Shown here piece by piece: positions 10,022 to 27,673 of a stretch of 64,000 nucleotides of DNA. Source of the stretch: Vicinamibacteria bacterium (lineage in GTDB: Bacteria > Acidobacteriota > Vicinamibacteria > Marinacidobacterales > Marinacidobacteraceae). The stretch is taken from NCBI GenBank assembly GCA_965199715.1, contig OZ241322.1:1568001-1632000 (forward strand), given 5' to 3'. Positions within the stretch are counted from its first letter, which is position 1; every line of letters begins with the position of its first letter. The notes below the pieces were generated by a model. The model was not told where the DNA came from, made no database searches, and saw only the letters and a program-made list of their open reading frames with translations. A program made the position numbers and the translations under genes.

Positions 10022-10314
10022 CGGCTGCTCGCGAGGATGTGGAGGCCGTCGTACGCGGGCAGCACGAACATCAGGATGCTGGTCAGGAAAAGACCCACGA
10101 GCACCGTCAGGATGAGCTGCATGTGCTCGAACTTGAGGTGCATGTAGTAGAAGATGATGAGGGTCGCCTTGATGGCCGATCCGAAGAGCACGAGGCTGAG
10201 CGCCAGCGCGGTGGGCAACGACGCGCCCTCGATGGCGATCATGAGAAGGGTGACGGCCAGCAGGACGCCCCAGAGGATCCAGTAGCCCCGGTAGGGATGC
10301 GCGGACGAACTCAT
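10018..10314 (-). CDS. ctaF: Cytochrome c oxidase subunit IV
   Basis: 3 TM, KATLIIFYYMHLKFE, operon context. Confidence 0.85.
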   Translation of the reverse strand: MSSSAHPYRGYWILWGVLLAVTLLMIAIEGASLPTALALSLVLFGSAIKATLIIFYYMHLKFEHMQLILTVLVGLFLTSILMFVLPAYDGLHILASSR

Positions 10315-10326
10315 GAAATCCCCTCC

Positions 10327-10932
10327 TCAGACCAGGTAGAACAAGGCGAACACAAAGACCCAGACAAGGTCCACGAAGTGCCAGTAAAGGCCGGCGTTCT
10401 CGACCCCGGCCGCCGAATACTTCCCGAGCGCCGAGCGGATCGCGACGACGAGCAGCACGGTCACGCCGGTGAGGACGTGGAAGCCGTGGAAGCCGGTGAT
10501 GATGAAGAAGAACTGGCTGAAGGTCGGCGAACCCCACGGGTTCCCGGTGATGCCGCCGCCCTCGGCGATGAAGTGGCTCCACTCGTACACCTGCATGCCG
10601 AGGAAGCCGAAGCCGCCGATGATCGTGAGCCACAAGAAGAGCGTGACCCGGTCCTTGCGCCCCATCTCGGCCGCCGCGACCGCGCAGGCCATGGTGGCCG
10701 ACGAGCTGATGAGCACGAAGGTCATCGCCGCGATGTAGGTGAGGCTGAAGACCTCCGACTGCTCGGGCCAATCGCCGGTGGCGATGCGGACCACGCCGTA
10801 GGACACCAGCAGGCCAGCGAAGAGCAGGGCGTCGGTGACGATGAAGAACCACATCATGGTCTTCTGCCAGGTGGCGCCGAAGGGGCTGGCGCCGCCGCCC
10901 CAATCGGCCTCTGCGAGCACGGTCTGGCTCAT
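10327..10932 (-). CDS. ctaE: Cytochrome c oxidase subunit III family (copy 2)
   Basis: FFIITGFHGFHV, GLYWHFVDLVW. Confidence 0.92.
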   Translation of the reverse strand: MSQTVLAEADWGGGASPFGATWQKTMMWFFIVTDALLFAGLLVSYGVVRIATGDWPEQSEVFSLTYIAAMTFVLISSSATMACAVAAAEMGRKDRVTLFLWLTIIGGFGFLGMQVYEWSHFIAEGGGITGNPWGSPTFSQFFFIITGFHGFHVLTGVTVLLVVAIRSALGKYSAAGVENAGLYWHFVDLVWVFVFALFYLV

Positions 10933-10963
10933 GCGGCCTCCTGTTTCCCGATGCCCGGAAACG

Positions 10964-11548
10964 TCATCCGAGCAGGAACATCACGGCCAGCAGATAGATC
11001 CACAGACCGCCGACGAAATGCCAGTAGATGGCGGTGAGGGTCGGAGCGTCCGACCGTCCGGGGACGAGGCGTCCGACGGCCGCGAGCAGCGCGACCGCGA
11101 CGAGAGCGACCACGCCCGCGAGCAGATGCGCCCCGTGCACTCCGGTCAATACGAAGAAGAACGAACTCTTGGGGTGGCTTTGGAGGTACACCCCGGCGTC
11201 CTGGAGCGCCCGCCACGAGGCGAGCTGGCAGGCGAGGAATCCGACCCCAAGCGCCGCCGTCGCGAGCATCGCGTTCCGGAACGCCGGAAGCCGCCCGCCC
11301 TGGAACGCCCGCCGCGCCCGTTCGAGCGACGCCGAGCTGAGCAGGATCAGCGCGGTGCCGAGCCACAGGACGGCGGGCGGCTCGAGCGCCACCCAGTCGC
11401 TTCCGCCGCTGCGGACGATGTACGCCGAGGTGAACGCGGCGAACAGCATGGTGATCCCCGCGAGCCCGACGAGCATGCCGAGCCGGTTCACGAACCGGCG
11501 ATCCGCCGGTCCGCCGCCCGCGGCCGCTTCGAAATGCGCAGTGGTCAT
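10964..11548 (-). CDS. Cytochrome c oxidase subunit III family (copy 1)
   Basis: LTGVHGAHL, YWHFVGGLW. Confidence 0.88.
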   Translation of the reverse strand: MTTAHFEAAAGGGPADRRFVNRLGMLVGLAGITMLFAAFTSAYIVRSGGSDWVALEPPAVLWLGTALILLSSASLERARRAFQGGRLPAFRNAMLATAALGVGFLACQLASWRALQDAGVYLQSHPKSSFFFVLTGVHGAHLLAGVVALVAVALLAAVGRLVPGRSDAPTLTAIYWHFVGGLWIYLLAVMFLLG

Positions 11549-11558
11549 GGGGATCCCG

Positions 11559-13286
11559 TCAGTTCTCCCACTGGGTCACGAAGTCGCGCTTCCCGCCGGG
11601 CGGGCTGTACTCGTAGGGCCAGCGCTTCACCTCGGGAATCTCGCCGGGCCAGTTGCCGTGGCCGGGGTGCGGCGGGGTGGACCACTCCAGCCCGACCGAG
11701 TTCCATGGGTTCTCGGTCGCCGGGGCGCCGAAGCGCATGCTGACGAAGTAGTTCCAGATGAAGATGAGCTGGCCGAGGAAGAGGATGAACGCCGCGATGG
11801 TGATGAACACGTTCACCGGCTGGAGCGGCTGCAGGAACTCGTAGACGTTCGGGTCGTAGATCCGCCGCATCATCCCCGAGACGCCGAGGTAGTGCATCGG
11901 GAAGAACACCGCGTAGTAGGCGATGAACGTGATCCAGAAGTGGATCTTCCCGAGACGCTCGCTGAGCATCCGGCCGAACATCTTGGGATACCAGTAGTAC
12001 ACCGCTCCGAAGGCCCCGAAGAGGCCGGCGCCGGCCATGATGAAGTGGAAGTGGCCGACCACGAAGTAGGTGTCGTGAAGCTGGATGTCGGTCGCGTTGG
12101 TCCCGAGGAATATGCCGGTGAGGCCGCCGGTCACGAACAGCGACACCACGGCAAGCGCGAACAGCGCCGGCGTCGTGAACAGGATGCGCGACCTCACGAT
12201 GGTGAACAGCCAGTTGAACGCCTTGACCGCCGACGGGATCGCGATCGCGAGAGTGGTCACCACGAAGAGGCTGCCGAGGAACGGGCTCATGCCGCTCACG
12301 AACATGTGGTGGCCCCAGACGAGGAAACTGAGGGTGCCGATGGCGACGATCGCGTACACCATCGACTTGTAGCCGAAGATCGGACGGCGGCAGAAGGTGG
12401 CGAGGATGTCCGACGTGAACCCCATCGCCGGCAGCATGATGATGTACACCTCGGGGTGGCCGAGGAACCAGAACAGGTGCTGCCAGAGCAGCGGCGTGCC
12501 GCCCTCGTGGGGCATCAGCGTGTCGCCGATGTAGATGCCGGCGGGCAGGAAGAAGCTGGTGCCGAGCGACCGGTCGAACGTCAGCAGGATGGCGCCGGCG
12601 GCGAGCGCCGGGAAGGACAACAGGCCGAGGATGCCGACCACGAACTGCGCCCAGGTGGTCAGCGGCATACGCATCATCCGCAGGCCCTTCGTGCGCAGGT
12701 TCAGGATCGTGACGACGAAGTTGAGGCCGCCCATCGTGAACGAGGCCACGAAGAAGATCATCCCGACCAGCCAGAGCGTCTGTCCGGCGTCGGAGCCGGG
12801 AATCGCGCTGCGGATCGCCGACAGCGGCGGGTAGGCGGTCCAGCCGGAAGCGGCGGCGCCGCCCTCCACGAAGAACGAGACGATGATGATGATCGCGCCC
12901 GGAACCACGGTCCAGAAGGACAGCATGTTCAGGAACGGGAACGCCATGTCGCGGGCGCCGATCTGGAGCGGGATCAGGAAGTTCCCGAAGCCGCTGACCG
13001 GAAGCAGCGACAGCAGGAAGAACACCATGATCGTCCCGTGCATCGTGAACAGGGACACGTAGAACTCGGGAGTCATGATCCCGCTGGCCATGCCCACCGG
13101 GAACAGGTTCTCGAGGAACGGCCACGGGCGCGAGGGGAACCCGAGCTGCAGGCGGATCAGGACCGCGAGAATCCCGCCGATGAACCCCATGGTCATCGCG
13201 AGCGTGAAGTACTGCTTCCCGATCATCTTGTGATCGAAGCTGAAGACGTACTTGCTTATGAAGCCTTGCTTGTGGCCGTGCTCCAT
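11559..13286 (-). CDS. ctaD: Cytochrome c oxidase subunit I, A1 type
   Basis: DHKMIG, MHG, WFLGHPEVY, WGHHMF, AVK, GHFH. Confidence 0.97.
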   Translation of the reverse strand: MEHGHKQGFISKYVFSFDHKMIGKQYFTLAMTMGFIGGILAVLIRLQLGFPSRPWPFLENLFPVGMASGIMTPEFYVSLFTMHGTIMVFFLLSLLPVSGFGNFLIPLQIGARDMAFPFLNMLSFWTVVPGAIIIIVSFFVEGGAAASGWTAYPPLSAIRSAIPGSDAGQTLWLVGMIFFVASFTMGGLNFVVTILNLRTKGLRMMRMPLTTWAQFVVGILGLLSFPALAAGAILLTFDRSLGTSFFLPAGIYIGDTLMPHEGGTPLLWQHLFWFLGHPEVYIIMLPAMGFTSDILATFCRRPIFGYKSMVYAIVAIGTLSFLVWGHHMFVSGMSPFLGSLFVVTTLAIAIPSAVKAFNWLFTIVRSRILFTTPALFALAVVSLFVTGGLTGIFLGTNATDIQLHDTYFVVGHFHFIMAGAGLFGAFGAVYYWYPKMFGRMLSERLGKIHFWITFIAYYAVFFPMHYLGVSGMMRRIYDPNVYEFLQPLQPVNVFITIAAFILFLGQLIFIWNYFVSMRFGAPATENPWNSVGLEWSTPPHPGHGNWPGEIPEVKRWPYEYSPPGGKRDFVTQWEN

Positions 13287-13311
13287 CGTGTTCTCCAGTG
13301 ACTCCGGGGCG

Positions 13312-14133
13312 TCAGTTCCCGGCGGCGGGGGCGTTTTGGGCCACCCAGGCCTCGTAGTCGCCCGCCTCCATGACCTCGAGGAAGGCGCGCATCCGGTAGT
13401 GGCCGAGACCGCACAGCTCGGCGCAGGCCACCTCGTAGTTGCCGGTCTTGATCGGCGTGAACCACACCTCGGTGCTCATGCCCGGAACCAGGTCGCGCTT
13501 GACCCGGAAGTTGGGCAGGAAGAAGGCGTGCTGGACGTCCTTCGAGCGCAGGAGGATCCGCGCCGGGCGGTCCACCGGGAGCACCAACTGGTTCGTGAGC
13601 ACCCAGTCGTCGGCGGCCGCCGGATCCGCGCCGTCGAGCCCGATCTGGTTGTCGATGGCGTACAGCTCGGGGTTGAAGCGCCCGAACTCGCCGTCCGCGC
13701 CCGGATAGTGGAAGTCCCACTGGAACTGCGCACCGACCGCGATGACGGTGACCGCGTCGTCGGGGGCCGGCTCGTTCACCCGCTCCCAGTACACGAGGCC
13801 GGTGAGCACGATCGGGACGAGGATGACCGCGGTCCCGAGCGTCCAGAACATCTCGAGCCGGTGGCTCTCGTGCCAGTTCGAGGCGACCGCGCCGGGCCGG
13901 TCGCGGTAGCGCCACACCACCCAGCCGAGCGCCACCTGGTAGAGCACGAAGGCGACGCCGGTGATCGCGAGGATGATGTTGTAGAGGCTGTCGAGATAGG
14001 CCCGGTCGGACGCCAGCTCGGGGACTCCGTAGCGGAAGAAGTAGGCGACCGAGGCCGCAACCATCACCCACAGGAACAAGGCGAAGGCGATTCCCGCGAG
14101 GCCGCCGGAAGCCGCTTTCGGATCGTCTGCCAT
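13312..14133 (-). CDS. ctaC: Cytochrome c oxidase subunit II (no fused cyt c)
   Basis: DVQH and CAELCGLGHYRM CuA ligands; SD AGGAG. Confidence 0.95.
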   Translation of the reverse strand: MADDPKAASGGLAGIAFALFLWVMVAASVAYFFRYGVPELASDRAYLDSLYNIILAITGVAFVLYQVALGWVVWRYRDRPGAVASNWHESHRLEMFWTLGTAVILVPIVLTGLVYWERVNEPAPDDAVTVIAVGAQFQWDFHYPGADGEFGRFNPELYAIDNQIGLDGADPAAADDWVLTNQLVLPVDRPARILLRSKDVQHAFFLPNFRVKRDLVPGMSTEVWFTPIKTGNYEVACAELCGLGHYRMRAFLEVMEAGDYEAWVAQNAPAAGN

Positions 14134-14191
14134 GAGGTCTTCTCCTGATTTCCGAACAGGACTCAACGGACCTGCGGGCGCCGCGCCCGCA

Positions 14192-16999
14192 TCAGCGGTC
14201 GTAATTCATGAGATACGTGGCCACGGCCCGCATCTGGGCCATGGGATCGCCGTCGAGAACGTCCGGCAGCGCGGTGACGAGGTTCCCCTGCTGGTCGGTG
14301 GGCCAGAACTGCGGCATCTGGGTGCCTGGCGTGATTCCCTGGGGGTCGAGCAGCCAGTCCACGATCCAGTCGTGCGTGAGCCGCTCGCCGGAAAGGCGGA
14401 ACGACGGGGCGAGCTGCGCCGCGTCCATCGTGCCGGCGGCGGAGGCGATGTGGCAGCGCTCGCACTGGAGCTGGTCGAGGAGCTGGGCGCCGACCCGCAG
14501 CGCGGCCCGCGTCGTCTCGCGCTCGTCCTCGGCGTCGAACGGCTGGCCGCCGTCCATCGCGAGGAAGCCGGTGACCAACGTGTTCGCCTCCTCCGGCGTG
14601 AAGTCGAAGGTCGGCATCCGGGCCTGCATCCAGAAACGGACCTCGCTCGGCTCCCGCAGGAAGTGGTAGAGCCAGTCGGCCTGGGTGCGGGCGCCCTGGG
14701 TGTTCAGGTTCGGCGGATGCATGCCCGAATCCGCGATCGCTTCGTAGATCCCGCCGCCCGCGCCGTCGATGACGTGGCAGCCGCGGCAGTTGTAGTCATG
14801 GATCAGGCGGCGGGCGTCCTCGGCGACCGCCTCGGCCGCGGAGAGCGTCTTGACCCCTTCCATCGGGAACTCGTCGTTCACCTGCCCCAGCACGTTGCGC
14901 ACGAGGTTGAGCCGGTCCGAGTCCTCGAACGCGAAGTACGGCATCCGCAGCTTCTCGCCCGGCAGCTTCTCCTTGCCCCGGTCGTAGCTCCTCGGCGCCG
15001 CCAGCTTGTTGTCCAGCCACGCCTGGCGGGTGTGCGGAACGTCCACGTACCCGAAATCCAGCCGCGTGACCATCTTGGAGCCCCACGTCGAGAGATCCAC
15101 CCCGATGTTCTGGGCTTCCTCGAATCCCGAGATCTCGTGGCAGCCGAAGCAGCCGTAGCGGAGGATGAGACGCTCGCCGGAGTACAGCAGCTTGTCCTGC
15201 TCGGACATCTCCGCGAGCCGTTCGTCGGCCAGCCGCTGCGGCAGCCCGGCGCGGAGGAACTCGCTGGTGATGACGTCCAGCTCGCCGGCGTCCATCGCCG
15301 GCCCGGCCCCGGCCATGAACTCGGGGGTCTCGCGGGAGACGAGCCACGCGGTGACGTCCGCCGCCTCCCGGTTCGTGAGCCGGAGGCTCGGCATGAAGGT
15401 GTCGGCCCAGTGGCTCTTCGGATCGCGGATCCACTCGTAGATGAAGCCCGGATCCAGCTTCGTGCCCGTGCCGGTGAGCGCGGGGCCGCGGCGGCGGTAG
15501 ATGCTCGCGTCGGCGTAGCCGGCCTCGTCGGTCAGGTGGCAGCCGGTGCAGCCCACCTCGGCGAAAAGCGTCTCGCCCCGCCCGGCGTCGCCGGGCGGCG
15601 GGGCCGGGTACTTCGGCTCGTCCGCGGCGCGGTCGAAGATGTACTCGACGATCGCCGCGACCTCGGTGTCGTTGCGCGCCCCGTGGTCGGCGTCGGGGTT
15701 GTTCTCCAGGTCCCAGAACTTCGGCATCCACGTGGAGCTGCGGAACGACTTCGGGTCCTTGACCCAGCGGGCGACGAAGTCCTGCGTGGTCTTGGTGGCG
15801 ATCCGGTTCAGCGAGGGGCCGCGCTTGCGCTTGCCCTCGAAGCCCGCGGTGTTGTGGCAGCCGTAGCAGCCGGCCAGCTCGTAGGTGAGCCGGCTGTCGT
15901 TCAGGTGGGTCGCCTGCGGCACGAAGACCTGGTCGCGGTGGCACTTGATGCAGCCGGCCTCGGTGACGTTCGCCGGGAACATCGGGCTGTCCCAGTAGTG
16001 ATCTTCCCGCCAGTCGTACTTCTCGACCCACTCGAGCTCCTGCTCGTGGTTCTGCGGGCTGTGGGTCGCGCCGGTGAAGGTGAGGCGGCGGCCCCGGCCC
16101 TCGTGGCACGAGGTGCAGCCGAAGTCATCGAGTCCGTGCGCCGATTCGCGGCTCACGTAGAGGTCGAGGTTCGGGTGGGCGCGGAAGGGCTGGGGCGCGT
16201 CCGCGTACTCGGGGTTGTCGATCCCGAGGTGGCAGGTCTGGCAGCGGTCGATCCGAGACACTTGCGCGAAGCTGAGGTCCTCGGTCACGTTGCGGACCAG
16301 AACCTGCTGGACCTCGATCGACGGATCGATGAAGTCCACGAGCGGCAGGTTGCGGAAGGTGTTCGGCAGGCTCGGGCGGAGGCTGTCGCGGCGGAGCCGG
16401 GCGAGCGACACGGCCTGGGTCAGGTCGTCGCGCTCCCCGCCCAGTTCCGAGATCCGGGAGAGCAGCTCCCGGCGCTCGGCGCGGAGGCCGCCCAGATCGT
16501 GGTCGAGGCTCACCCGGACGTCCCTCGCGGCGAAGAAGTCGGTCTCGAGCGTCCGGAACTCCTCGTCGCCGATGGCCTTGCCCCACGGGACCCCCCGGGC
16601 CTTCGTCTCCTCGTAGAAGAACTTGTCCGAGTCGTACACCGCCTTCAGCTCGCGCTCCCGGATGTCGGCGAGCGTGCGCTCGACGTCCAGCTCGCCGATC
16701 CGGGCGTCGATGGCGTCCAGCGCGCCCTGCTCGGCTGCGAGCGCGGCCTCGGCCTCGGCGAGCGCGGCCTCGACCCGCTGCAGCTCGGCCTGGTTCACCG
16801 ACTGGAGCGCCGCCTGCTCCTGGGCGGCGGCCTTCTCGCGCTCCATCGCCGTGAACTGCCGCTGGTAGTCCTTCCACTCCCGCGCGTAGTCGAACCAGAC
16901 CATCCAGAGCGTCGAGGCGAGGAGGAGGGCGCTCGAGAACGCGAAGACGACGTGCAGCGCCTTGATGTTGTGCGCGTGGCCGGGAGCGACTTTCGACAA
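14192..16999 (-). CDS. Membrane-anchored octaheme cytochrome c of Rieske/cyt b complex
   Basis: Eight CxxCH: CQTCH, CTSCH, CIKCH, CYGCH, CTGCH, CFGCH, CRGCH, CERCH; N-terminal TM + coiled coil. Confidence 0.92.
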   Translation of the reverse strand: MSKVAPGHAHNIKALHVVFAFSSALLLASTLWMVWFDYAREWKDYQRQFTAMEREKAAAQEQAALQSVNQAELQRVEAALAEAEAALAAEQGALDAIDARIGELDVERTLADIRERELKAVYDSDKFFYEETKARGVPWGKAIGDEEFRTLETDFFAARDVRVSLDHDLGGLRAERRELLSRISELGGERDDLTQAVSLARLRRDSLRPSLPNTFRNLPLVDFIDPSIEVQQVLVRNVTEDLSFAQVSRIDRCQTCHLGIDNPEYADAPQPFRAHPNLDLYVSRESAHGLDDFGCTSCHEGRGRRLTFTGATHSPQNHEQELEWVEKYDWREDHYWDSPMFPANVTEAGCIKCHRDQVFVPQATHLNDSRLTYELAGCYGCHNTAGFEGKRKRGPSLNRIATKTTQDFVARWVKDPKSFRSSTWMPKFWDLENNPDADHGARNDTEVAAIVEYIFDRAADEPKYPAPPPGDAGRGETLFAEVGCTGCHLTDEAGYADASIYRRRGPALTGTGTKLDPGFIYEWIRDPKSHWADTFMPSLRLTNREAADVTAWLVSRETPEFMAGAGPAMDAGELDVITSEFLRAGLPQRLADERLAEMSEQDKLLYSGERLILRYGCFGCHEISGFEEAQNIGVDLSTWGSKMVTRLDFGYVDVPHTRQAWLDNKLAAPRSYDRGKEKLPGEKLRMPYFAFEDSDRLNLVRNVLGQVNDEFPMEGVKTLSAAEAVAEDARRLIHDYNCRGCHVIDGAGGGIYEAIADSGMHPPNLNTQGARTQADWLYHFLREPSEVRFWMQARMPTFDFTPEEANTLVTGFLAMDGGQPFDAEDERETTRAALRVGAQLLDQLQCERCHIASAAGTMDAAQLAPSFRLSGERLTHDWIVDWLLDPQGITPGTQMPQFWPTDQQGNLVTALPDVLDGDPMAQMRAVATYLMNYDR

Positions 17000-17011
17000 G
17001 ACGAACCGTTC

Positions 17012-18133
17012 CTAGATGTTGAAGAAGATCTCGGGGAAGGCGACGATGTACTTCAGGTTGAAGAACCAGCGCAGGTACATCTTGATGGGCAGGCTCAGCA
17101 TCATCAGGAAGAGCGAAACTCCGACGTAGTAGCGCACCGCTCCCATCTTCTCGTAGTACTTGTTGAGGCTCAGCCACTTGAGGCCCGCGGGGAACCGCGA
17201 ATTCGGCCACGAGAGGGCCACCGGCAGCACGAGCACGTAGGCGCCCACCATGAGCACGCCGAGCCATTCGCGCAGTAGCGCGTTGAAGAGGCCCCCCGAC
17301 GGCAGCGGCATCCCGAGCAGCTTCACCCAGAAGAAGTCGGAGACGTTGACGTTCAGCAGCGGCTCCACCCGGTGGACGTCCCAGTACTCGTAGGGGCCGA
17401 AGAAGTTCCAGTTGGGCCCGCGCAGGAAGGTGCCCGAGACGACGAGCACCGACCACAGGATCAGGAAGCCGTAGAGGAAGATCGCGATCTCGGCCTTCCG
17501 CTCCTTGAACGTGTAGTAGCCGTTCCCCTTGGGGTTCGTGTCGATGTAGGGGATGGCCATGAGCCCGACGATGATGAGCGTCGGGAACACCACGCCGGCG
17601 AGCCACGGGTCGAAATAGACCAGCATCTCCTGGAGGCCGAGGAAGTACCACGGAGCCTTCGAGGGGTTCGGCGAGTCGGCGGGGTTCGCCGGTTGCTCGA
17701 GCGGCGCGGCGAGGAGGATGGACCAGACCAGCAGCACCACGCTGAGCAGGACCATCGCCAGCATTTCGGTATAGACGAGGTCGGGCCAGACCCAGACCTT
17801 CTCCGACTCCGCCTTCTCCAGCGGCGGCTCGCCCGCGGCCTTCCGCCGATCGTTCTCGAGCCCCTGGTGCATCGCGTACCAAGTGAAGAAGAGGACGAGG
17901 AAGAGGACTCCGGTGATCGGGATGTTGTCCGGCTTGGCGACGATCAGGAGGAAGTTCGGGTCCCACATGCTCGCGACGTAGAACACCGAGAAGACGGCGA
18001 AGAAGGCCTTCGCCGCGGTCCGGTGCCAGACGCCGGTGAAGCGGAAGGCGAGCAGGAGGCCGACCGTGCAGATGGTGAACAGCACCGTCGGGCCGGAGCC
18101 CCAGTTCACGATGTTCCGGAAGAGATCGAGCAC
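17012..18133 (-). CDS. Cytochrome b subunit IV-like (PetD/QcrC) with extra TM helices
   Basis: VWPD, PLEQPANP...PNPSKAPWYFLG (PEWY equivalent), IPYID. Confidence 0.88.
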   Translation of the reverse strand: MLDLFRNIVNWGSGPTVLFTICTVGLLLAFRFTGVWHRTAAKAFFAVFSVFYVASMWDPNFLLIVAKPDNIPITGVLFLVLFFTWYAMHQGLENDRRKAAGEPPLEKAESEKVWVWPDLVYTEMLAMVLLSVVLLVWSILLAAPLEQPANPADSPNPSKAPWYFLGLQEMLVYFDPWLAGVVFPTLIIVGLMAIPYIDTNPKGNGYYTFKERKAEIAIFLYGFLILWSVLVVSGTFLRGPNWNFFGPYEYWDVHRVEPLLNVNVSDFFWVKLLGMPLPSGGLFNALLREWLGVLMVGAYVLVLPVALSWPNSRFPAGLKWLSLNKYYEKMGAVRYYVGVSLFLMMLSLPIKMYLRWFFNLKYIVAFPEIFFNI

Positions 18134-18196
18134 GCTGTCAGCCGTTTCGGGTTTCGGTTGCGGGGGCGGAGATCACGGGATGACGACTGCGGCCGG

Positions 18197-18997
18197 CTAC
18201 ATCGGGCCGGAGATTCCTCCGTCCTTGCGGACCCGCCAGAAATGCACCGCCATGAGGACCGCGGCGACGAGCGGAAGCCCCACGCAGTGCAGCACGTAGA
18301 AGCGCAGGAGCGTCGGCTGGCCGATCGAGCGGGCGCCCAGAAGGGCGAAGCGGGCGTCGTTCCCGGTGTTGACGAGGCTGATGTCCCCGAGCGTGAGCGA
18401 CGCGCTGAGCGGCCCCTCGGTGCCGAGCAGCGGGGTCGCGCGGGCCATGTTCGAGCCCACCGCGATCGCCCAGATCGCGAGCTGGTCCCACGGCAGCAGG
18501 TAGCCGGTGAAGGACAGCAGCAGGGTGAGGACGAGCAGCACCACGCCGATGCCCCAGTTGAACTCGCGCGGCGGCTTGTAGGAGCCGGTCATGAACACCC
18601 GGAGCATGTGCAGCCAGACGGTGATGACCATGGCGTGGGCGCCCCACCGGTGCAGCTCCCGCATGATGCCGAGCGGGACGTGCTCTTGCAGGTCCACGAT
18701 GTCCGCGTAGGCGTACTCGACCGTGGGCCGGTAGTAGAACATCAGGAGCAGGCCGGTGAAGGTCAGGACGAGGAACAGGAAGAAGGTCACGCCGCCCATG
18801 CACCAGGTGTAGCGGAGCTTGATCCCCGCCTTCCGCGACTTCACCGGGTGGAGGTGCAGGAACACGTTGCTCATCATCACGAGCGCGCGGTTCCGGTTGC
18901 TCACCGGCTTCCCGTGCCGGAAGACCGAGGACCAGATCTGGTTGTTGGTGGCTTCCTTCCAGGCTCCCTTGAGCGAATCGAGGATGCGGTTCAGCAC
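18197..18997 (-). CDS. petB: Cytochrome b6-like subunit
   Basis: WCMGG (heme ci Cys), [31 protein letters not shown]. Confidence 0.93.
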
Positions 18998-19012
18998 GGG
19001 CGGGCGCTCCGA

Positions 19013-19588
19013 TCAGACCATGGGGAGGAACGAGTTGGTGTCCTCCCACTGGTTGGCCTCGAACTTGTAGAGGCGGGACTTGTCGATGAGGATCTGGCCG
19101 TCGTCGGCGAGGCTCACGCCGACCCGTTCCAGCGGACGGGGCGCCGGCCCCTCGAAGTTGATGCCGCTGATGTAGAACCCGCTGCCGTGGCAGGGGCACT
19201 TGAACTTGGACTCGGCCTCGAGCCAGTTGGGCGTGCAGCCGAGGTGGGTGCAGATCGTCGAGAGCGCGTAGATCTTTTCCTCGTCGCGGACGATCCAGAC
19301 CTGGTAGCGCTCCTTGAAGCGGGTGTCCACCACGCCGATCGCGAAGTCGTCGGGGAACCCGGCCGTGAAAGTCGAGGGCGGCTCGGTGAGCACGTTCGGG
19401 AACATGAACCGCCCGGCGGCGGTCAGCCCGGCGCCGACGGCGGCGATGAAGAACCCCCACGCGATGGCGAGGAACGGAAACTCGCGGCGGGTGACCTTCT
19501 GCGCGCCGGCCTTGGGGGACCGTTTCGGGGCGACCTTCGGAGGAGGCTTCGGAGCGCTCGCCGCGGGAGGGTCAGTCGTTTCGGGCAT
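19013..19588 (-). CDS. petC: Rieske 2Fe-2S subunit
   Basis: Tat TRREF; CTHLGC, CPCHGS, GPAPRPL. Confidence 0.93.
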   Translation of the reverse strand: MPETTDPPAASAPKPPPKVAPKRSPKAGAQKVTRREFPFLAIAWGFFIAAVGAGLTAAGRFMFPNVLTEPPSTFTAGFPDDFAIGVVDTRFKERYQVWIVRDEEKIYALSTICTHLGCTPNWLEAESKFKCPCHGSGFYISGINFEGPAPRPLERVGVSLADDGQILIDKSRLYKFEANQWEDTNSFLPMV

Positions 19589-19624
19589 CGGGAACTCGGA
19601 TGGGCTGATGGGCGAGCGGCCGCA

Positions 19625-19630
19625 ATTCTA
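19625..19630 (-). promoter_or_regulatory. Candidate -10 box (TAGAAT) of respiratory operon
   Basis: AT-rich TAGAAT in the 65-nt gap upstream of the Rieske gene. Confidence 0.5.
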
Positions 19631-19653
19631 TATGGAAGCCGGCCCGGTTTCGG

Positions 19654-20541
19654 TCATTGGGGAAGGGTCGGCGCGGCCATGTCGCCGGCGGCGAGCACGC
19701 GCAGCGCGACCTCGCGGGTTCGCAGGTCCGGGTCGGAGGCCCCGATCTCCCGCAACGCCTCCAGCACCCGGGGCGACCGGAGCGCTCCGGCGGCCTGGAT
19801 GGCGCTCAGCCGGGCCAGCATCCGCTCGCCCTCCCCGACGCCGGCGAGGCCGTTCCAGTAGGCGGGCCCCAGCATCCCGAGCAGGCGGCCCTCGGCGCTC
19901 GGATCGCCGAGCCGGGCGAGCGCGACGACCGCGTTCATGGACACGTCGATCTCGGGATCGTCCATTGCGCGCAGCAGCGAATCGGCGCCCCTCGGGTCGC
20001 CGATGGCGCCGAGCGCGTACACCGCCATGGTCCGCACGCCGGCGTCGGCGGACCGGCTCGCCGCGATCAGGGCGTCCACGGATCCCGGGCCGCCGATCGC
20101 GCCGAGCGCCCACGCGGCGTACACCTGGACCGTCGGGTCGTCGTCGTCGAGCGCCTCGACGAGCGCCGGCGTCGCGCGCGGGGTTCCGATGGTCCCGAGC
20201 GCCAGCGCGAGGTACTGGCGCACCCACGGGTCGGTCCGGGGGGCCTCCTCGAAGGCGCGCACCAGCTCCGGGGCGAGCGTGCGGTAGTCCTCGGCCTCGC
20301 CGTGCTGGATCCGGTTCGCCAGCTCGAACGCCGCCTGCCGCCGCTCGCGGGCGTTGCCGGAGCGGACGCGGTTCAGGTAGTCCTCGGCGGTGGTGTCGTC
20401 GGAAACCAGCCACGCGAACCCGAGGAACAGCCCGACGCCGACGACGACCACCCCCATCGGGATGACGAAGAGCTGGAGGAGGGTGCGGGCGAAGGAGACG
20501 TCCGGCTCGGCGTCGGGCGTCGGGCTCGCGGGCTCGGTCAT
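19654..20541 (-). CDS. Membrane-anchored HEAT-repeat (PBS lyase-like) protein
   Basis: N-terminal TM; repeats VRQYLALALGTIG, VQVYAAWALGAIG, VRTMAVYALGAIG. Confidence 0.85.
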   Translation of the reverse strand: MTEPASPTPDAEPDVSFARTLLQLFVIPMGVVVVGVGLFLGFAWLVSDDTTAEDYLNRVRSGNARERRQAAFELANRIQHGEAEDYRTLAPELVRAFEEAPRTDPWVRQYLALALGTIGTPRATPALVEALDDDDPTVQVYAAWALGAIGGPGSVDALIAASRSADAGVRTMAVYALGAIGDPRGADSLLRAMDDPEIDVSMNAVVALARLGDPSAEGRLLGMLGPAYWNGLAGVGEGERMLARLSAIQAAGALRSPRVLEALREIGASDPDLRTREVALRVLAAGDMAAPTLPQ

Positions 20542-20555
20542 CGATCAACCGGGAA

Positions 20556-21572
20556 TCATGGCGCCGCCGGCAGCGCGCCGAGACCGCGCATCAGCGCCAG
20601 ATCGGCGAGGACGCCCTCTAGCGTGGCGATGTCCACGGTCTGCGCCGGGTCGGTGTAGGCGGTGTCGGGGTGCGTGTGGGCCTCGACGAGGAGCCCGGCG
20701 GCGCCCACGCCGATGGCGGCGCGGGCGAGCGGGCGCACCCGGCTGCGGTGCGCGACCGAGCGCGAGGGGGCCACGAGCACCGGGAGATGGGAGATCTCGC
20801 GGGCGACCGGGACGGCGTGCAGGTCGAGCACGGTCCGGCCCTGCCCGCCGGTGCGCACGCCGCGCTCGCAGAGCGCCACGTCGTGCTTCTCCCGGGCCAG
20901 CAGCGATTCGGCGGCCATGAGCCACTCCTCGATGGAGGCCGAGGGAGCGCGTTCGAGGATCACCGGGATGCGGAACCCGGCGACGACCTCGAGGAGCGGC
21001 TCGTTTCCCATGTGGCTCGCCGGCACCTGGACCGCGTCCACCCGCTCGGCCACGTCCGCCGCCGAGCGCGGATCCACCACGTCGGAGACGATCGGAAGCC
21101 CGGTCTCCGCCCGCACGCGCTCCAGCGTGTGGAGCCCCTCGTCGCCGATCCCGCCGAACTGGTAGGGGCCGATCCGCTCGGACCAGAGCCGGGCGCGGAA
21201 GATCCGGACGCCGGCGGCGCGCACCCGCCGGGCGATCGCGAGCGTGCGGGCCTCGGTCTCGACGCTGCCGGGGCCGGCGATGACGACCGGCTCGGGCCCG
21301 CCCACCCGCACGTCGCCGATATGGACCTCGGTGCTCTCGGGATGGACCTCGCGGCTGACGAGTTTCCACGGCTTCGTGACCCGGATGCACTGGGCGACGC
21401 CCGGCAGCCGAACGATGTAGGAGTCGTCCACCGGGCCCCGGTTTCCGGTGACGCAGATGGCGGTGCGGCCTGCGCCGGGAACCCGCAGCGGCGCGTAGCC
21501 CATGTCCCGGATCGCGGACTCGACCCGCCGGCACTGGTCCTCGGTGGGACCGGGCTGCATGATGACGAGCAT
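20556..21572 (-). CDS. Type I-beta DAHP synthase homolog with ACT-like domain, degenerate active site
   Basis: KPWKLVSRE, IAGPGSVE, EEWLMAAE, LCERGVRT; key residues substituted. Confidence 0.85.
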   Translation of the reverse strand: MLVIMQPGPTEDQCRRVESAIRDMGYAPLRVPGAGRTAICVTGNRGPVDDSYIVRLPGVAQCIRVTKPWKLVSREVHPESTEVHIGDVRVGGPEPVVIAGPGSVETEARTLAIARRVRAAGVRIFRARLWSERIGPYQFGGIGDEGLHTLERVRAETGLPIVSDVVDPRSAADVAERVDAVQVPASHMGNEPLLEVVAGFRIPVILERAPSASIEEWLMAAESLLAREKHDVALCERGVRTGGQGRTVLDLHAVPVAREISHLPVLVAPSRSVAHRSRVRPLARAAIGVGAAGLLVEAHTHPDTAYTDPAQTVDIATLEGVLADLALMRGLGALPAAP

Positions 21573-21576
21573 CCTT

Positions 21577-22359
21577 CTATTCTCCGGGAGACAGTCGGCG
21601 GACCGCGCCGGCGAAGGCTTCGGGGAGCCGCTCGCGGTCGCTCCGGCCGATGACGCGGGCGAGGTGGCTGCCGACGACGGCGACCCGCGCGCCGGCTTCG
21701 AAGGCGCCCTCGACCTGGGACGAAGTCGAGATGCCGAACCCCAGGCAGACCGGCGTCGCGACGACGGCGACGACCTCCCGGACCCGGTCGAGCACCGGAT
21801 CGAAGGCGTCTTGGCGCACGCCGGTGACCCCTTGGAAACCGGCGAGATACAGCAGGTCCGACGCGCGGGCCAGCCGCGTCAGGCGGCCCTCGCCCGTGAG
21901 CGGCCCGGCGAGCTCGACGTGGCCGAGGCCGGCGCGGCGCGAGGCCCGGCGTAGCGGTCCGGCTTCGTCGAGCGGGATGTCCGGGGTCAGGAGCGACGAG
22001 GCCCCCGCCGCGGCCGCTTCCGACGCGAACCGCTCGTAGCCCATCCGGTGGACGAGGTTCCCGTAGATGAGCAGGTTCAGGGGCGTGTCCGGGCAGGCGT
22101 CCCGGATGCGCCCGAGGATTCCGAGCGCCGACCGGGTCGAGGTTCCGCCGGCGAGCGCGCGCTTCGCGGCCGCTTCGATCGCCGGCCCGTCGGCGACCGG
22201 GTCGCGGTAGGGGAACCCGAGTTCCAGCATCCCGGCCCCCGCCCCGACCGCGGTCCGCGCGAGCTCCACCGAGAGATCGGGGCTGGGGTCGCCGAGCATC
22301 AGGAACGGCGATACCCAAGGTCCGGCGGCCAGTTTCCGCCGCAGCAGCTTCCGGCTCAC
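21577..22359 (-). CDS. trpA: Tryptophan synthase alpha chain
   Basis: [29 protein letters not shown]. Confidence 0.95.
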
Positions 22360-23543
22360 GGGGTCCGCCCGAGCGCGAAGTAGGTCTCGAGGTCCTTGTC
22401 GCCCCGTCCCGACAGGTTCAGGAGGACGCGGGCTCCCTCGGGGAGTTCGCCCCGGCTGACGGCGGCGAGCGCGAACGCGAGGGCGTGCGCCGACTCGAGC
22501 GCCGGGACGATTCCCTCGCTCACGGAGAGGAACTCGAAGGCCTCGAGCGCCTCCTCGTCGGTCGCGGCGACGTAGCGGGCCCGCCCGGTCTCGCGAAGGT
22601 GCGCGTGCTCCGGCCCCACGCCGGGGTAGTCCAGCCCGGCGGAGACGCTCTCGGCCTCGAGGATCTGGCCGTCGTCGTCTTGGAGCACCATGGTGCGCGC
22701 GCCGTGGAGCAGGCCCGGCGAGCCCCGCACCAGCGTCGCCCCGTGGCGGCCGGTCTCGAGGCCCGCGCCGCCGGGTTCGACCCCGATCAGCCGGACGTCG
22801 GAGTCCTTCAGGAACGGCTGGAAGATCCCGATCGCGTTGCTGCCGCCGCCGACGCAGGCGACCACGGCGTCCGGGAGCCCGCCGCGTTGCCGCCGCCACT
22901 GGCGCCGGGCCTCGCGGCCGATCACCGACTGGAAATCCCGCACCAGCCTCGGAAAGGGATGCGGGCCGGCGGCGGTGCCCAGCAGGTAGTGGGTCGCGCC
23001 GAGCGAGCGGGTCCAGTCGCGCAGCGCCTCGTTGATCGCGTCCTTGAGCGTGCGCCCGCCGGCCGTCACCGGAATCACCTCCGCCCCGTTGAGGCGCATC
23101 CGCCGGACGTTCGGGGCCTGGCGCTCCATGTCCCGCTCGCCCATGTAGATCACCGCCTCCATGCCGAGCCGGGCGGCGATCATGGCGGTGGCGGTTCCGT
23201 GCTGGCCGGCCCCGGTCTCGGCGATCAGGCGCGTCTTGCCCATCCGCCGGGCGAGCAGCGCCTGCCCGAGCACGTTGTTCGCCTTGTGGGCCCCGCCGTG
23301 GAGAAGGTCCTCGCGCTTGAGGACGACCGCCAGGCCGGCGCGGCGCGAGAACGACGGCACCCGGGTGAGCGGGGTGGGGCGCCCGACCCATTCGCGGGCC
23401 TCCCGGTCCAGGTCCGCCCGGAATTCCGGATCGCGGACGAAGGTCCGGCGGGCCTCTTCCAGCTCCTCGAGCGCCGGGATCAGGAGGTCCGAGACGAAGC
23501 GCCCGCCGAACGCCCCGAAGCCGCCGACGCGGGGACGATTCAT
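22356..23543 (-). CDS. trpB: Tryptophan synthase beta chain
   Basis: [44 protein letters not shown]. Confidence 0.97.
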
Positions 23544-24154
23544 GATGCGGCGAGCTCGTCCACGAAGCGGCGCATCCGCTCGGGATCCTTGACTCCGGGG
23601 GCCGACTCGACCCCGCTGGAAACGTCCACGCCCCACGGCCGCCGCGGCGTGAGCCGGGCCACGTTCTCGGGGCGGAGGCCGCCCGCGATGAACGCCCGAT
23701 CGGGGGCGCGCTCGCCGAGGATGCGCCAGTCGAAAACCCGCCCGGTGCCGCCGCCCCCGACATCGAAGACGAGCGGCCCCTCCGCCGGCCGGGGAGGCCG
23801 GAAGTCCGGCAGCCGGGCGGCGCCGTCGGGAACCACGACGACCCGGTGAACGATGAAGCCGGCCGCCCGCAGCGCGTCGGCCCCGGAGCAGTCGAGGCCG
23901 TGGGGCTGGACCCGCTCCACGCCGAGGAAGCGGGCGTCCGCCTCCACCTGTTCCCGGCTGCGGCGTCCGGTGGCCAGCACCGGCCGCACTCCGGGGTCGG
24001 CCTCCCGCGCCGCCTCGATCACCCGGCGAGCCTCGTCGAGCGTGGCGGCGCGGGGGGAATCGGGGGCACGCACGATCCCGATCCAACGGGCGCCGAGCCG
24101 CACGGCGAGGCGGGCGTCCTCGGGCCGGCGGAGGCCGCAAATCTTGATCTCCAT
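23540..24154 (-). CDS. trpF: Phosphoribosylanthranilate isomerase
   Basis: [26 protein letters not shown]. Confidence 0.93.
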
Positions 24155-24156
24155 GG

Positions 24157-24900
24157 CTACATGAACGCCGCCGGGTCGGGAGCGCGCATGAGCGCCGTTC
24201 CGATCAGGACCGCGTCCGCCCGGCCGCGGACGGGGTCGAGGTGCGCGGGCTCCAGATAGCCGCTCTCGGCCACGGCGATCCGGTCGTCCGGAACGCGATC
24301 CAGAAGGCGCTCGGCGCGGCGGCGGTCCACGTCCAACGTGTCCAGATCCCGGTTGTTCACTCCGACGATCGCGCCAGGGAGCCGCAGCGCTTGTTCCAGT
24401 TCGGCCGGATCGTGGACCTCGACGAGAACGTCGAGGCCGATCTCCTGCGCCTCGGCGTGGAGCGCCCGGAGTTCGCCGCCTTCGAGGCAGCGGACGATGA
24501 GCAGGACCGCCGAGGCCCCCGCGGCGCGCCCGGCGCGGATCTGCGCCGCGTCCACCACGAAATCCTTCATGAGCGCGGGGATCCCGGACGCGCCGGCGGC
24601 GGTCCCGAGGTCGGCGAGCGAGCCGCCGAACGCGCCGGGCGCGGTCAGGACCGAGAGCGCGGCGGCGCCGGCGGCTCGGTAGCGGCGCGCCTGCTCCGCC
24701 GGGTCGGCGTCGCGGATGCGTCCCTCGGAGGGGCTGCGGCGCTTGAACTCGGCGATCACCGAGAGTCGGTCGCGCCCCCGGATCGCCTCCGCGAACGACG
24801 GCGGCGGAAACGCCGGGAGCACCGGCTCGGGGCCGGCGTTGAGCGCCGCGGCGCGCTCCCGGGCGGACCGGACGAGTCCGGCCATCACCCCGTCGGTCAC
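24157..24900 (-). CDS. trpC: Indole-3-glycerol phosphate synthase
   Basis: [29 protein letters not shown]. Confidence 0.95.
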
Positions 24901-25916
24901 GAAGTCACCCGGACGCTGGTCTCGATGTAGCGATCCAGCGAGCGCAGGGCCTCGCCGTTCGCCAGAAGCTCGCGTGCGGACGCCACCCCGGCCCCGAGGT
25001 CGGGCGCGAGGCCGGCCGCCGCGATCGCGGCGGCCGCGTTCAGCGCCACCACGTCCCGGCGCGGCCCCTGATCGGCCCCCGAGAGGACGCCCCGGAGGAT
25101 CTCGGCGTTCTCCTTCGCGCTTCCGCCGGCCAGCGCCGAAATCGGCGCCTCCTTGAATCCGAAGTCGCCGGGGCGCGCCTCGAACTCGTGGATCGCGCCG
25201 CCCTCGACCCGGTGCCCCCGGGTGGTTCCGTGGAGGCCGATCTCGTCCAGGCCGTCGCAGTGGACGACGAGCGCCGAGGCGCAACCCAGTTCGAGCAGGG
25301 CTCCGGCCACGACCTCGGTCAGGTCGGGGTGATAGACCCCGACGAGCTGGCTGTCGGCGAGCGCCGGGTTCGCGAGCGGTCCGAGCACGTTGAACACGGT
25401 GCGGACGCCGAGCGCCCGGCGCACCGGCGCCACGTGCGCCATGGCCGGGTGGAAGGCCGGCGCGAAGAGGAAGACGAATCCGGTCGAGTCGAGGATGCGG
25501 ACGGCCTGCTCCGGGTTCAGGTGGAGCGGGGCGCCGCACGCCTCCAGCACGTCGGCGCTTCCGGTCATCGAGGAGACGCTGCGGTTGCCGTGCTTCGCGA
25601 CGGCGCCGCCCGCGGCGGCCACCACGAACGCCGACGCGGTCGAGATGTTGAAGGTGCCGCTGCGATCCCCCCCGGTGCCGCAGGTATCCACCAGCGGGCG
25701 CACCGCGGAGGTCACCGCCTTGCGGTGGCTGCGCATGACCCGGGCGCAGGCGGCGAGCGTGCCGGCGTCCGGCTCGCGGACGCGCAGCGCGACGAGCAGC
25801 GCGGCGGTTTCGACGGCGTCGCCCTCGCCCGACAGGATGCGGTGCAGCGCGGCCTCGAGGGCGGCGGACTCGGCGGATTGGCCGGCGAGAAGGGCTTCGA
25901 GAAGGTTGGCGATCAC
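24897..25916 (-). CDS. trpD: Anthranilate phosphoribosyltransferase
   Basis: DTCGTGGD, FNIST, KHGNRSVSS, GLDE; SD AAGGAG. Confidence 0.96.
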   Translation of the reverse strand: MIANLLEALLAGQSAESAALEAALHRILSGEGDAVETAALLVALRVREPDAGTLAACARVMRSHRKAVTSAVRPLVDTCGTGGDRSGTFNISTASAFVVAAAGGAVAKHGNRSVSSMTGSADVLEACGAPLHLNPEQAVRILDSTGFVFLFAPAFHPAMAHVAPVRRALGVRTVFNVLGPLANPALADSQLVGVYHPDLTEVVAGALLELGCASALVVHCDGLDEIGLHGTTRGHRVEGGAIHEFEARPGDFGFKEAPISALAGGSAKENAEILRGVLSGADQGPRRDVVALNAAAAIAAAGLAPDLGAGVASARELLANGEALRSLDRYIETSVRVTS

Positions 25917-26012
25917 GGGAAGGGACTCCTTGCGACGACTCGGGAGGGGGCGGCCGCCGGGTTGGTCGATGCTCGGGGCGGCCGCGGTCGGCGGCTCGGC
26001 TGGGCCGGAACT

Positions 26013-26096
26013 TCAGCCGACGGGAGAAAAGCGGGGGCGCATCCGGGGGCCCCGCCATCGAAATCGCTCGGCGGGGGCGGGGTACCGGGTCGTCAT
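26013..26096 (-). promoter_or_regulatory. Candidate trp leader peptide and attenuator
   Basis: uORF MTTRYPAPAERFRWRGPRMRPRFSPVG; GCGGGG/CCCCGC stem + TTTT at 26027-26056. Confidence 0.45.
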
Positions 26097-26152
26097 GGTC
26101 ACGCGTCGGGACGAGATTCTAAGCGAGCGTCGATCCGTACAATGGGCTGACG

Positions 26153-27673
26153 ATGCGGAAAGCCTTCGGAGCGGCGCTTCTCCTTGCTTGCGGGAGTCCC
26201 CCGCCGGAACCGGCGCTCTCGGTCGTCGAGCTGGATATCGCGGGGATCCACGCGGGGCTGGCGGCCGGCGACTTCCGCTGCTCCGAACTCGTCGCCGCCT
26301 ACCTCGCCCGGATCGAGGCCTACGACCGGCAGGGTCCCACGCTGAGCGCGATCGTGGCGGTGAACCCGCAGGCCGAATCGCGCGCCCGAAAGGCGGACGA
26401 GCGCATCGCCCGGGACGGGATCGCCCGCCCGCTCGAGTGCGTGCCGATGATCGTGAAGGACAACTACGACACGGCGGACATGCCCACGACCGCCGGTTCG
26501 GCCTCGCTCGCCGCGTCCGTTCCGCCGGACGACGCCTTCCAGGTGCGGCGGATCCGGGAAGCCGGGGCCATCGTGCTGGCCAAGTCGAACATGGCGGAGT
26601 TCGCGTTCAGCCCGAACGAGAGCCTCGGGTCGGTGGTGCCCGGGCACACCCGCAACCCCTACGACCCCCGCCGCGTGCCCGCCGGCTCCTCGGGCGGCAC
26701 CGCGGCCGCGGTCGCGGCCAGCTTCGGCGCGGTCGGGCTGGGCACCGACACCGGGAACTCGATCCGCGGCCCGTCCTCGCACGCGGCGCTCGTCGGAATC
26801 CGCTCCACGATGGGGATCACGAGCCGCGACGGGATCGTGCCGCTGAACCTGTTCCGCGACGTCGGCGGGCCGATGGCGCGCACCGTCGAGGACGCGGTGC
26901 GGGTGTTCGACGTGATCGCGGGGCCGGATCCGGCGGATCCCGCCACCGAGGGCTTCGAACGCGACGAGGACTACCGGACGGCGCTCGACGCCGCGCCGCT
27001 CGACGGGATGCGGATCGGCGCGGTCCGGCAGCTCTCGGACGTGGAGACCGCCGATCCCGAAATCCTCGCGCTCTTCGAGGCGGCGCTCGCGGACCTCGCG
27101 GCGCTCGGGGCCGAGATCGTGGGTCCGGTCGTGATCCCGATGCTGGACGAGGAGCGCAGCCTGTGGTGCAACCCGTTCAAGGCGCACCTCGAGGCGTATC
27201 TCATGAGCCTCGGGCCGGACGCGCCGGTGCGGACGCTCGCCGAAATCGTGGAGGGCGGCGACTTCCACCCGTCCATCGAGGGACGGCTCGAAACGGCGCT
27301 CGAGGTCGAGGAAGCGCCGGAGAACGGCTGCGCCGACGCCATGGCGGGAGCCGACGCGCTGCGCGCCGAGGTCGAGGCGGCCTTCGCCGGCGACGGGCTG
27401 ACCGCGCTCGCGTACCCCACGTGGAGCAACCCGCCGCGGATGCTCGGGGATCTCGTGACTCCGGGCGGAAACAACTCGTACCAGTTGTCGCCGCCGACCG
27501 GCTTCCCTGCGGTCACCGTTCCGATGGGGTTCACGGGCGACGGACTGCCCGGCGGGCTGCAATTGCTCGGGCGGGCGCGGCAGGAGGCGGCGCTGATCCG
27601 GCTCGCCTTCGCGTTCGAGCAGGCCACGCTCCACCGCCGGCCGCCGCCGACCACGCCGGAACTCGCGCCGTGA
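26153..27673 (+). CDS. Amidase signature family lipoprotein
   Basis: LLLAC lipobox; VKDN, GSSGG, GTDTGNSIR. Confidence 0.92.
   Translation: MRKAFGAALLLACGSPPPEPALSVVELDIAGIHAGLAAGDFRCSELVAAYLARIEAYDRQGPTLSAIVAVNPQAESRARKADERIARDGIARPLECVPMIVKDNYDTADMPTTAGSASLAASVPPDDAFQVRRIREAGAIVLAKSNMAEFAFSPNESLGSVVPGHTRNPYDPRRVPAGSSGGTAAAVAASFGAVGLGTDTGNSIRGPSSHAALVGIRSTMGITSRDGIVPLNLFRDVGGPMARTVEDAVRVFDVIAGPDPADPATEGFERDEDYRTALDAAPLDGMRIGAVRQLSDVETADPEILALFEAALADLAALGAEIVGPVVIPMLDEERSLWCNPFKAHLEAYLMSLGPDAPVRTLAEIVEGGDFHPSIEGRLETALEVEEAPENGCADAMAGADALRAEVEAAFAGDGLTALAYPTWSNPPRMLGDLVTPGGNNSYQLSPPTGFPAVTVPMGFTGDGLPGGLQLLGRARQEAALIRLAFAFEQATLHRRPPPTTPELAP

Follow-up and report, generated by a model that had tools for sequence, protein, structure and literature searches.

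A catalytically degenerate DAHP synthase homolog at the end of the trp operon of sponge-associated Acidobacteriota

Catalytically dead homologs that are kept as allosteric partners are known from amino acid metabolism, with HisZ, Thermus GdhA/APRTh and the trypanosome prozyme as examples. In the Trp pathway, PMC12727527 describes plant TSB-like as a pseudoenzyme. DAHP synthase (DAH7PS) depends on metal for its activity, as stated in part of PMC8408635, and the type I-beta enzyme of T. maritima (1RZM/3PG9; PRK08673) has its allosteric amino acid site formed by an ACT pair, according to passages of PMC5493349. The same passages describe how the M. tuberculosis DAH7PS lends aromatic amino acid sensing to chorismate mutase (PMC5493349).

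Here we characterize psi-aroF, a gene in a 64,000-nucleotide stretch of Vicinamibacteria DNA (the window). Its product has the ACT, linker and TIM barrel architecture and the fold of the T. maritima DAH7PS but, unlike that enzyme, lacks the catalytic lysines and metal ligands, and apparently no pathway is left for it to gate. It also differs from the M. tuberculosis DAH7PS, a type II, active enzyme that acts on chorismate mutase, in that psi-aroF is of type I-beta and dead, and the inventory of a related genome bin, bin61, counts zero chorismate mutases. The intact aroF of other Vicinamibacteria (loci L028, L029 and L030; 69 of 89 sister clusters) lies in the same place behind trpA, at 54–60% identity and with a near-identical ACT domain; it differs in that none of its 13 catalytic positions is damaged, and in L028 trpE-trpG and a leader with four consecutive Trp codons are still present. 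Whereas metabolic pseudoenzyme regulators are mostly paralogs beside an active copy, psi-aroF is a sole ortholog that has apparently outlived its own pathway, and the active cognate enzyme that accompanies regulators of the HisZ/GdhA type is absent from the bin61 inventory (70% complete). The usual explanation, in which a dead paralog regulates its live twin, seems unavailable here, so that the selection on psi-aroF would reflect a second function of the type I-beta fold that had not been seen before. We found no description of a DAHP synthase pseudoenzyme in the open-access PMC and bioRxiv literature, and none of this lineage's aromatic metabolism in the open-access literature; a term search of the pseudoenzyme review PMC10211241 returned no mention of DAH7PS.

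Reading frame, fold and active site of psi-aroF

An earlier note on this DNA had described a full-length, intact reading frame 4 nt past trpA without giving a strand. The frame lies on the minus strand (Table 1) and runs from ATG to TGA with zero internal stops; 4 nt separate its start from the stop of trpA at 21577. The plus-strand reading of the same interval is not a gene. The ACT-like domain and scaffold, which the note took to be kept, are recovered as Pfam DAHP_snth_FXD (PF18152, ACT-like; residues 1–67) and DAHP_synth_1 (PF00793; residues 87–319), and the AlphaFold model (pLDDT 87.5) has the DAH7PS structures 4GRS and 1RZM as top Foldseek folds (TM ~0.8). By domains and fold, psi-aroF thus belongs to the type I-beta DAH7PS structural family.

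Table 1 Features of the trp operon and its borders in the window
Feature	Positions	Strand	Evidence or remark
psi-aroF (pseudo-DAHP synthase, 338 aa)	20556..21572	minus	ACT/ferredoxin-like domain + TIM barrel; PEP, E4P and metal site dismantled
trpA	21577..22359	minus	TIGR00262 above cutoff
trpB	22356..23543	minus	TIGR00263 above cutoff
trpF	23540..24154	minus	PF00697
trpC (start codon approximate)	24157..24900	minus	PF00218; frame checked
trpD (first enzyme gene of operon; catalytic motifs intact; candidate partner)	24897..25916	minus	TIGR01245 above cutoff; alignment
Trp leader ORF (27 aa, Arg-Trp-Arg motif; adjoins trpD upstream)	26013..26096	minus	25/25 regions
TAGAAT -10-like box (~20 nt upstream of leader start)	26116..26121	minus	not called by generic promoter scan
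HEAT-repeat protein (14 nt downstream of psi-aroF)	19654..20541	minus	after psi-aroF in 26/27 loci

Profiles of the active enzymes score psi-aroF lower: 304 bits with PRK08673 (NCBIfam; cutoff 335), compared with 456 for the intact sister L028, and 237 with TIGR01361 (cutoff 268), compared with 376 for the intact sister. With the KDO8P synthase profile TIGR01362 it reaches 86.5 (cutoff 314); both lysines are gone and the KANRS-type motif was not found. By these scores and motifs psi-aroF is predicted to fall outside the families of active DAH7PS and KDO8PS enzymes.

Alignment with T. maritima 1RZM bore out all five motif changes that the note had listed relative to the consensus, namely AGPCS to AGPGS, KPRT to SERI, GARN to PASH, LKRG to LERA and DPSH to APSR. 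SERI, PASH and Glu207 thus stand in place of the motifs of an active DAH7PS, and at the positions that we take to be the metal ligands, Cys102/His272/Glu298/Asp309, psi-aroF has Gly/Arg/Glu/Asp. In T. maritima numbering, the retained residues are R126, R133, R237, E298 and D309. The clustering of changes at catalytic positions that the note had proposed is real and only moderate: 8/13 catalytic or metal positions (our choice from the T. maritima literature) are changed, compared with 14/58 other family-conserved positions (Fisher p=0.017). With its fold and reading frame intact, its catalytic residues lost and purifying selection acting on it (see below), psi-aroF qualifies as a pseudoenzyme as far as sequence defines one. 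Its DAHP synthase Pfam domains and its COG2876 assignment mean that annotation would wrongly credit a sponge symbiont with entry into the shikimate pathway.

The dead clade and the selection acting on it

Of 6252 hits, the best 120 comprise 31 clusters at ~67–100% identity, which we call the dead clade, and 89 at 54–60%, the sisters introduced above. Within these best 120, K131 and K207 are both lost in 31/31 dead-clade clusters, compared with 1/89 sisters and 4/149 distant representatives, and K131x, T134x, N187H/D and K207E/D are each common to all 31. R186S and D269A each occur in 2/31 of these clusters and are mostly private to the window's lineage. The orthologs that the note had suggested looking for, with the same substitutions next to trp genes, were thus found beside trpA in 27/27 loci as regards the clade-wide lesions, and largely not as regards these two. 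None of the 31 dead-clade clusters among the best 120 hits has the full four-ligand set, a metal ligand being missing in each by one of two mutually exclusive routes: C102G with H271R and E297 retained (19/31), or E297A/S with H271 retained (12/31). K131, K207, N187 and a metal ligand are therefore lost jointly in 31/31, at positions that are at least 85% conserved in the 149 distant representatives.

This joint loss makes it very improbable that psi-aroF is still an active DAHP or KDO8P synthase working through migrated residues, even though R126, R237 and often E297/D308 are kept and the new R128 could replace a lysine; the bin61 inventory moreover counts no downstream pathway for DAHP (PMC5649159, supplementary table). 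We also considered a neofunctionalised enzyme or small-molecule binder whose rebuilt barrel pocket would accept, for example, anthranilate or kynurenine. Such a pocket would account for the residues fixed near the old site (G128R and A129L (29/29), N187H (29/29), P132E, K207E/D, F191E, N229K and N252H) and for the retention of R126 and R237 in 31/31 dead-clade clusters among the best 120 of 6252 hits. The two arginines, however, also survive in most unrelated degenerate homologs, positions 131, 133 and 134 vary freely across the dead clade, and the two exclusive metal-site losses resemble charge compensation of an empty site and not one chemistry, so that we regard a rebuilt pocket as improbable.

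In a tree built without the active-site columns, the dead clade (SH-aLRT 100, stem 0.48) was nested among intact Vicinamibacteria enzymes; this tree and the AU test below used a 60-row subsample of 137. A2 covered 30/31 dead-clade rows (all but P0028), and the residue-fixation and charge counts 29/31 (all but P0028 and P0029). We conclude that psi-aroF is the aroF that closes the Vicinamibacteria trp operon, passed on by vertical descent, and that it lost catalysis once, on the stem of the sponge-associated clade. A second degenerate group of nine clusters (P0038, P0057, P0066, P0072, P0073, P0080, P0093, P0099 and P0102) and the degenerate pair P0045 and P0051 are both placed elsewhere in this subfamily; they show convergent C102S/P and K207E/D and mostly N187S. 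The best tree favours an independent origin of the second group, a common origin not being rejected (AU p=0.305). Since at least five catalytic lesions are also carried by 9/149 distant I-beta representatives (P0153, P0164, P0189, P0208, P0228, P0245, P0249, P0261 and P0266), catalysis-free DAH7PS proteins may be a recurring class. A search of the ESM Atlas returned nothing but ordinary DAHPS clusters.

Two observations concern variation within the family. The psi-aroF alleles of L005, L008 and L010 are mosaics, 0.87–0.97 identical over codons 1–80 to the E297A-type L014/L019/L007/L016 and 0.68–0.88 in the barrel, so that the two dead metal-site types have apparently been swapped by recombination. 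Cysteines 14, 40 and 62 of the ACT domain are near-invariant throughout the subfamily, dead and active, and are not so in distant homologs; they are a possible redox or metal site.

Omega was 0.064 for psi-aroF, compared with 0.039 for trpB, 0.042 for trpD, 0.070 for trpF, 0.075 for trpC and 0.087 for trpA from the same 25 genomes (GY+F3X4 on a fixed Trp-enzyme tree; 25 of 28 genomes, with L005, L006 and L012 dropped for incomplete operons); high GC3 makes absolute omega rough, and the comparison stays within one operon. Setting omega to 1 lowered lnL from -11366 to -13226, a cost of ~1860 units. None of the 27 dead-clade loci (27/27) has an in-frame stop, and the amino acid tree length of psi-aroF, 3.68, is below that of trpC (4.08), trpF (4.32) and trpA (4.91). 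psi-aroF is therefore under purifying selection as strong as that on the working Trp enzymes. The central claim of the earlier note, that selection maintains a pseudoenzyme coupled to the trp operon, finds strong support in this omega, in synteny in 27/27 loci and in the clade-wide lesions, and the decay that it had named as its refutation, with dN/dS near 1 and intact relatives, is contradicted by the same omega and by the lesions shared among dead-clade relatives. The active-site loops of the dead clade are indeed relaxed, as decay or a reading frame serving only as a transcriptional spacer would have it, but in view of the omega, the uninterrupted frames and the short tree this explanation is effectively refuted.

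Operon context and the missing pathway

A GTDB scan yielded 30 loci, 27 of the dead clade and three intact (L028, L029 and L030). The 27 are all from Acidobacteriota (sponge-type Vicinamibacteria, Ca. Marinacidobacterium and bin61-type), and in each of them psi-aroF lies directly behind trpA. The HEAT-repeat gene comes next wherever the locus extends that far, the 27th locus ending first; this linkage is missing in the intact sisters L028 and L030. The sister L028 has the order leader-trpE-trpG-trpD-C-F-B-A-aroF and L030 trpB-trpA-aroF, with aroF intact in both. Given this shared place behind trpA, psi-aroF is the positional ortholog of an active aroF, and we identify it as the ortholog of the intact operon gene and not as a spare paralog of it.

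TrpE and TrpG of L028 matched nothing in the window or the clade loci, 24 of which reach upstream of trpD. A leader ORF of the Arg-Trp-Arg type stands directly 5′ of trpD in every region (224/1000 shuffles gave one). That the leader now adjoins trpD implies the removal of trpE/trpG from between the two; the dead clade has lost trpE/trpG from its operon and keeps the Trp leader and trpD-C-F-B-A. The leaders of the window and of 24 related loci contain 1–3 Trp in the Arg-Trp-Arg pattern, mostly as CGA-TGG-CGA codons, and begin a short distance downstream of a TANAAT box. These leaders had no called U-tract terminator, a promoter/terminator scan gave no signal above chance, and Rfam had 0 matches in 19000–27000.

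Several features of the surroundings were recorded. On the minus strand, ~10000–20541 holds HEAT-repeat, Rieske, split cytochrome b, 935-aa cytochrome c-like and cytochrome c oxidase-like genes, all names except HEAT being assigned by inspection. An amidase-signature protein with a lipoprotein-like N-terminus (26153–27673, plus strand) is, in most of the clade's loci, encoded divergently to the trp promoter, and it is conceivable that it releases anthranilate; a second amidase-like ORF lies at 39564–41153 (minus strand). The TrpF branch to the sister L028 measures 3.24, compared with 0.38–1.04 for the other operon genes, possibly through replacement or a burst of change. In L027, a 520-aa ORF (3498–5060), transposase-like by inspection, splits the operon between trpD and trpC.

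Locus L012 belongs to bin61 (MPMW; 70.27% complete), whose gene inventory is given in Supplementary Table S4 of PMC5649159. In the rows of that table for aromatic metabolism, DAHPS-family COG2876 counts 1, and zero is given for type I-alpha DAHPS, type II DAHPS and KdsA, for all the shikimate steps AroB, AroD, AroQ, AroE, AroK, AroA and AroC, for TrpE, TrpG/PabA, TyrA and chorismate mutase, and for the quinone/folate-route COGs (MqnA-, MqnD-type, MenF, MenD and FolP, plus MenA) (PMC5649159). TrpD, TrpB, TrpA, PheA and Phe hydroxylase are present, as are one kynureninase and one kynurenine formamidase, with TDO at 0 (PMC5649159). At this completeness only 3/6 control amino acid genes are present, and the evidence for pathway loss comes mainly from this one bin. 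Two of the quinone-route COGs are those that we presume to be of the MqnA and MqnD type. In a search with the L028 TrpE, down to 50% identity and into Planctomycetota, apparent same-contig pairs numbered 0/37 for clade contigs of at least 20 kb (18 of them at least 1 Mb) and 4/28 for intact-sister contigs; the test has low sensitivity, is blind to non-orthologous TrpE and gives weak to moderate support for TrpE loss. We favour the view that the shikimate pathway and anthranilate synthase have been lost and that Trp would be made from salvaged anthranilate or kynurenine.

The main idea of the earlier note was that psi-aroF is a regulatory subunit acting on an active DAHP synthase; without catalysis of its own, it would pair in a heterotetramer with an enzyme encoded at another site. 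This is mechanistically neat, since in the T. maritima geometry two subunits could use their ACT pairs to gate the other two, and 30% of bin61 is missing. However, presumed canonical positions of the oligomer interface are remodelled by F191E, Y223S, Q140A/G and the loss of one residue at 242. Moreover, bin61 has one DAHPS-family gene and zero shikimate genes (PMC5649159, supplementary table), no second DAHPS copy was found in the window or the 27 loci, and the 89 clusters closest to the dead clade from outside, drawn from the best 120 hits, apparently have no contig in common with it. Because psi-aroF is itself the ortholog of an active aroF and bin61 lists no other DAHPS, we consider the regulatory subunit quite unlikely.

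A putative role in sensing aromatic amino acids

The reading that we tentatively prefer is that psi-aroF is an aromatic amino acid sensor, probably of Trp, that acts in trans on the anthranilate-salvage Trp pathway, most plausibly on TrpD; it fits the note's suggestion of a sensor with Trp enzymes as its target. TrpE is the usual target of Trp feedback. A lineage that dropped de novo chorismate synthesis, and made Trp by anthranilate or kynurenine salvage, would have lost this feedback point together with TrpE. psi-aroF would keep the ACT-gated open/closed switch and bind an aromatic amino acid, most likely Trp and possibly Phe. Through contact between proteins it would relay this signal to one of the co-expressed enzymes that remain of the pathway. 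TrpD would be the logical target, being the new first, PRPP-consuming step now that TrpE is gone. psi-aroF would then resemble the M. tuberculosis DAH7PS in lending its allostery, with the lending function alone left.

The most constrained part of psi-aroF is the ACT ligand loop, which we assume to map residue by residue onto the T. maritima allosteric site: loop 28–48 has a tree length of 0.60 against 2.54 for the barrel (~4x slower), and 14/21 of its columns are invariant. Its conservation is just as high in the active sisters and so may be inherited structure and not a new sensing role. Mean charge is +2.7 in the ACT domain of the dead clade and +0.4 in that of the sisters, and -4.3 and -0.9, respectively, in the barrel; this reciprocal shift would fit a latch in which ACT domain and barrel co-evolve. 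That a dead homo-oligomer keeps its ACT loop invariant and the charges of ACT domain and barrel matched suggests that something reads the switch, and as no active DAHPS is apparent, the likeliest reader would be a co-expressed Trp enzyme. Compared with T. maritima, the ACT pocket has H29L, S31V and V38A, which are common to the active trp-operon sisters and presumably make it less polar and roomier; these changes would suit Trp or Phe better than Tyr. Against a sensor counts that the operon still has its Trp leader, which leaves no obvious need for another feedback device. The stem/crown rate ratio of TrpD, 2.39, compared with 1.4–4.6 for the other genes, shows no unusual pattern linking TrpD to psi-aroF.

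Synteny in 27/27 loci and an omega of 0.064 also fit a ligand-independent scaffold or activator of Trp enzymes, which would channel labile intermediates in a metabolon or stabilise a subunit, with the ACT domain serving structure or docking only. In favour of it, the subfamily-specific barrel surface residues T106-E107-x-R109-T110, R276/R278/R280/R284 and Y306 are invariant in dead and active members. The strongest constraint, however, sits on the ACT loop, the allosteric amino acid site of T. maritima in passages of PMC5493349, and we hold a pure scaffold to be unlikely.

A sensor of aromatic amino acids could also have a target other than the Trp enzymes, namely PheA, the trp leader and ribosome, or the downstream HEAT/respiratory genes. 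PheA is present in bin61 without a chorismate route (PMC5649159, supplementary table), the HEAT gene follows psi-aroF in nearly all loci, arginines have been gained in the ACT domain, and DAHPS-prephenate dehydratase fusions (40–49% identity) dominate the longer homologs. These fusions, however, belong to distant lineages of the Syntrophobacterales type, with intact catalytic motifs in 118/120 cases, Pfam finds no nucleic-acid-binding domain in psi-aroF, and the HEAT gene is not linked to the intact aroF of L028 and L030. We judge such an outside target to be rather improbable.

Returning to the sensor of the Trp enzymes, we suggest with greater reserve that an enzyme of a lost pathway survives here as a free-standing Trp-sensing module that replaces the TrpE feedback site, and that a contact between DAH7PS and a Trp enzyme already existed in the active subfamily, which would explain the apparently repeated loss of catalysis in that subfamily. 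If true, this would reveal a hidden DAH7PS–Trp enzyme interaction. psi-aroF would be the catalytically dead first enzyme of aromatic synthesis, kept in sponge-dwelling bacteria though the pathway seems gone; having seemingly outlived that pathway, it is more surprising than first thought. Our results suggest that a widespread sponge symbiont is an aromatic auxotroph with Trp salvage. Brominated Trp products, barettins among them, have been connected with its genus (bioRxiv 10.64898/2026.08.03.742642).

Of the 226 longer hits, the best 120 included no fused form of the dead clade, which is weak evidence on a partner. Among the longer homologs, P0271–P0389 make up a large family from Syntrophobacterales-type genomes in which an intact DAHP synthase is fused to prephenate dehydratase and ACT.
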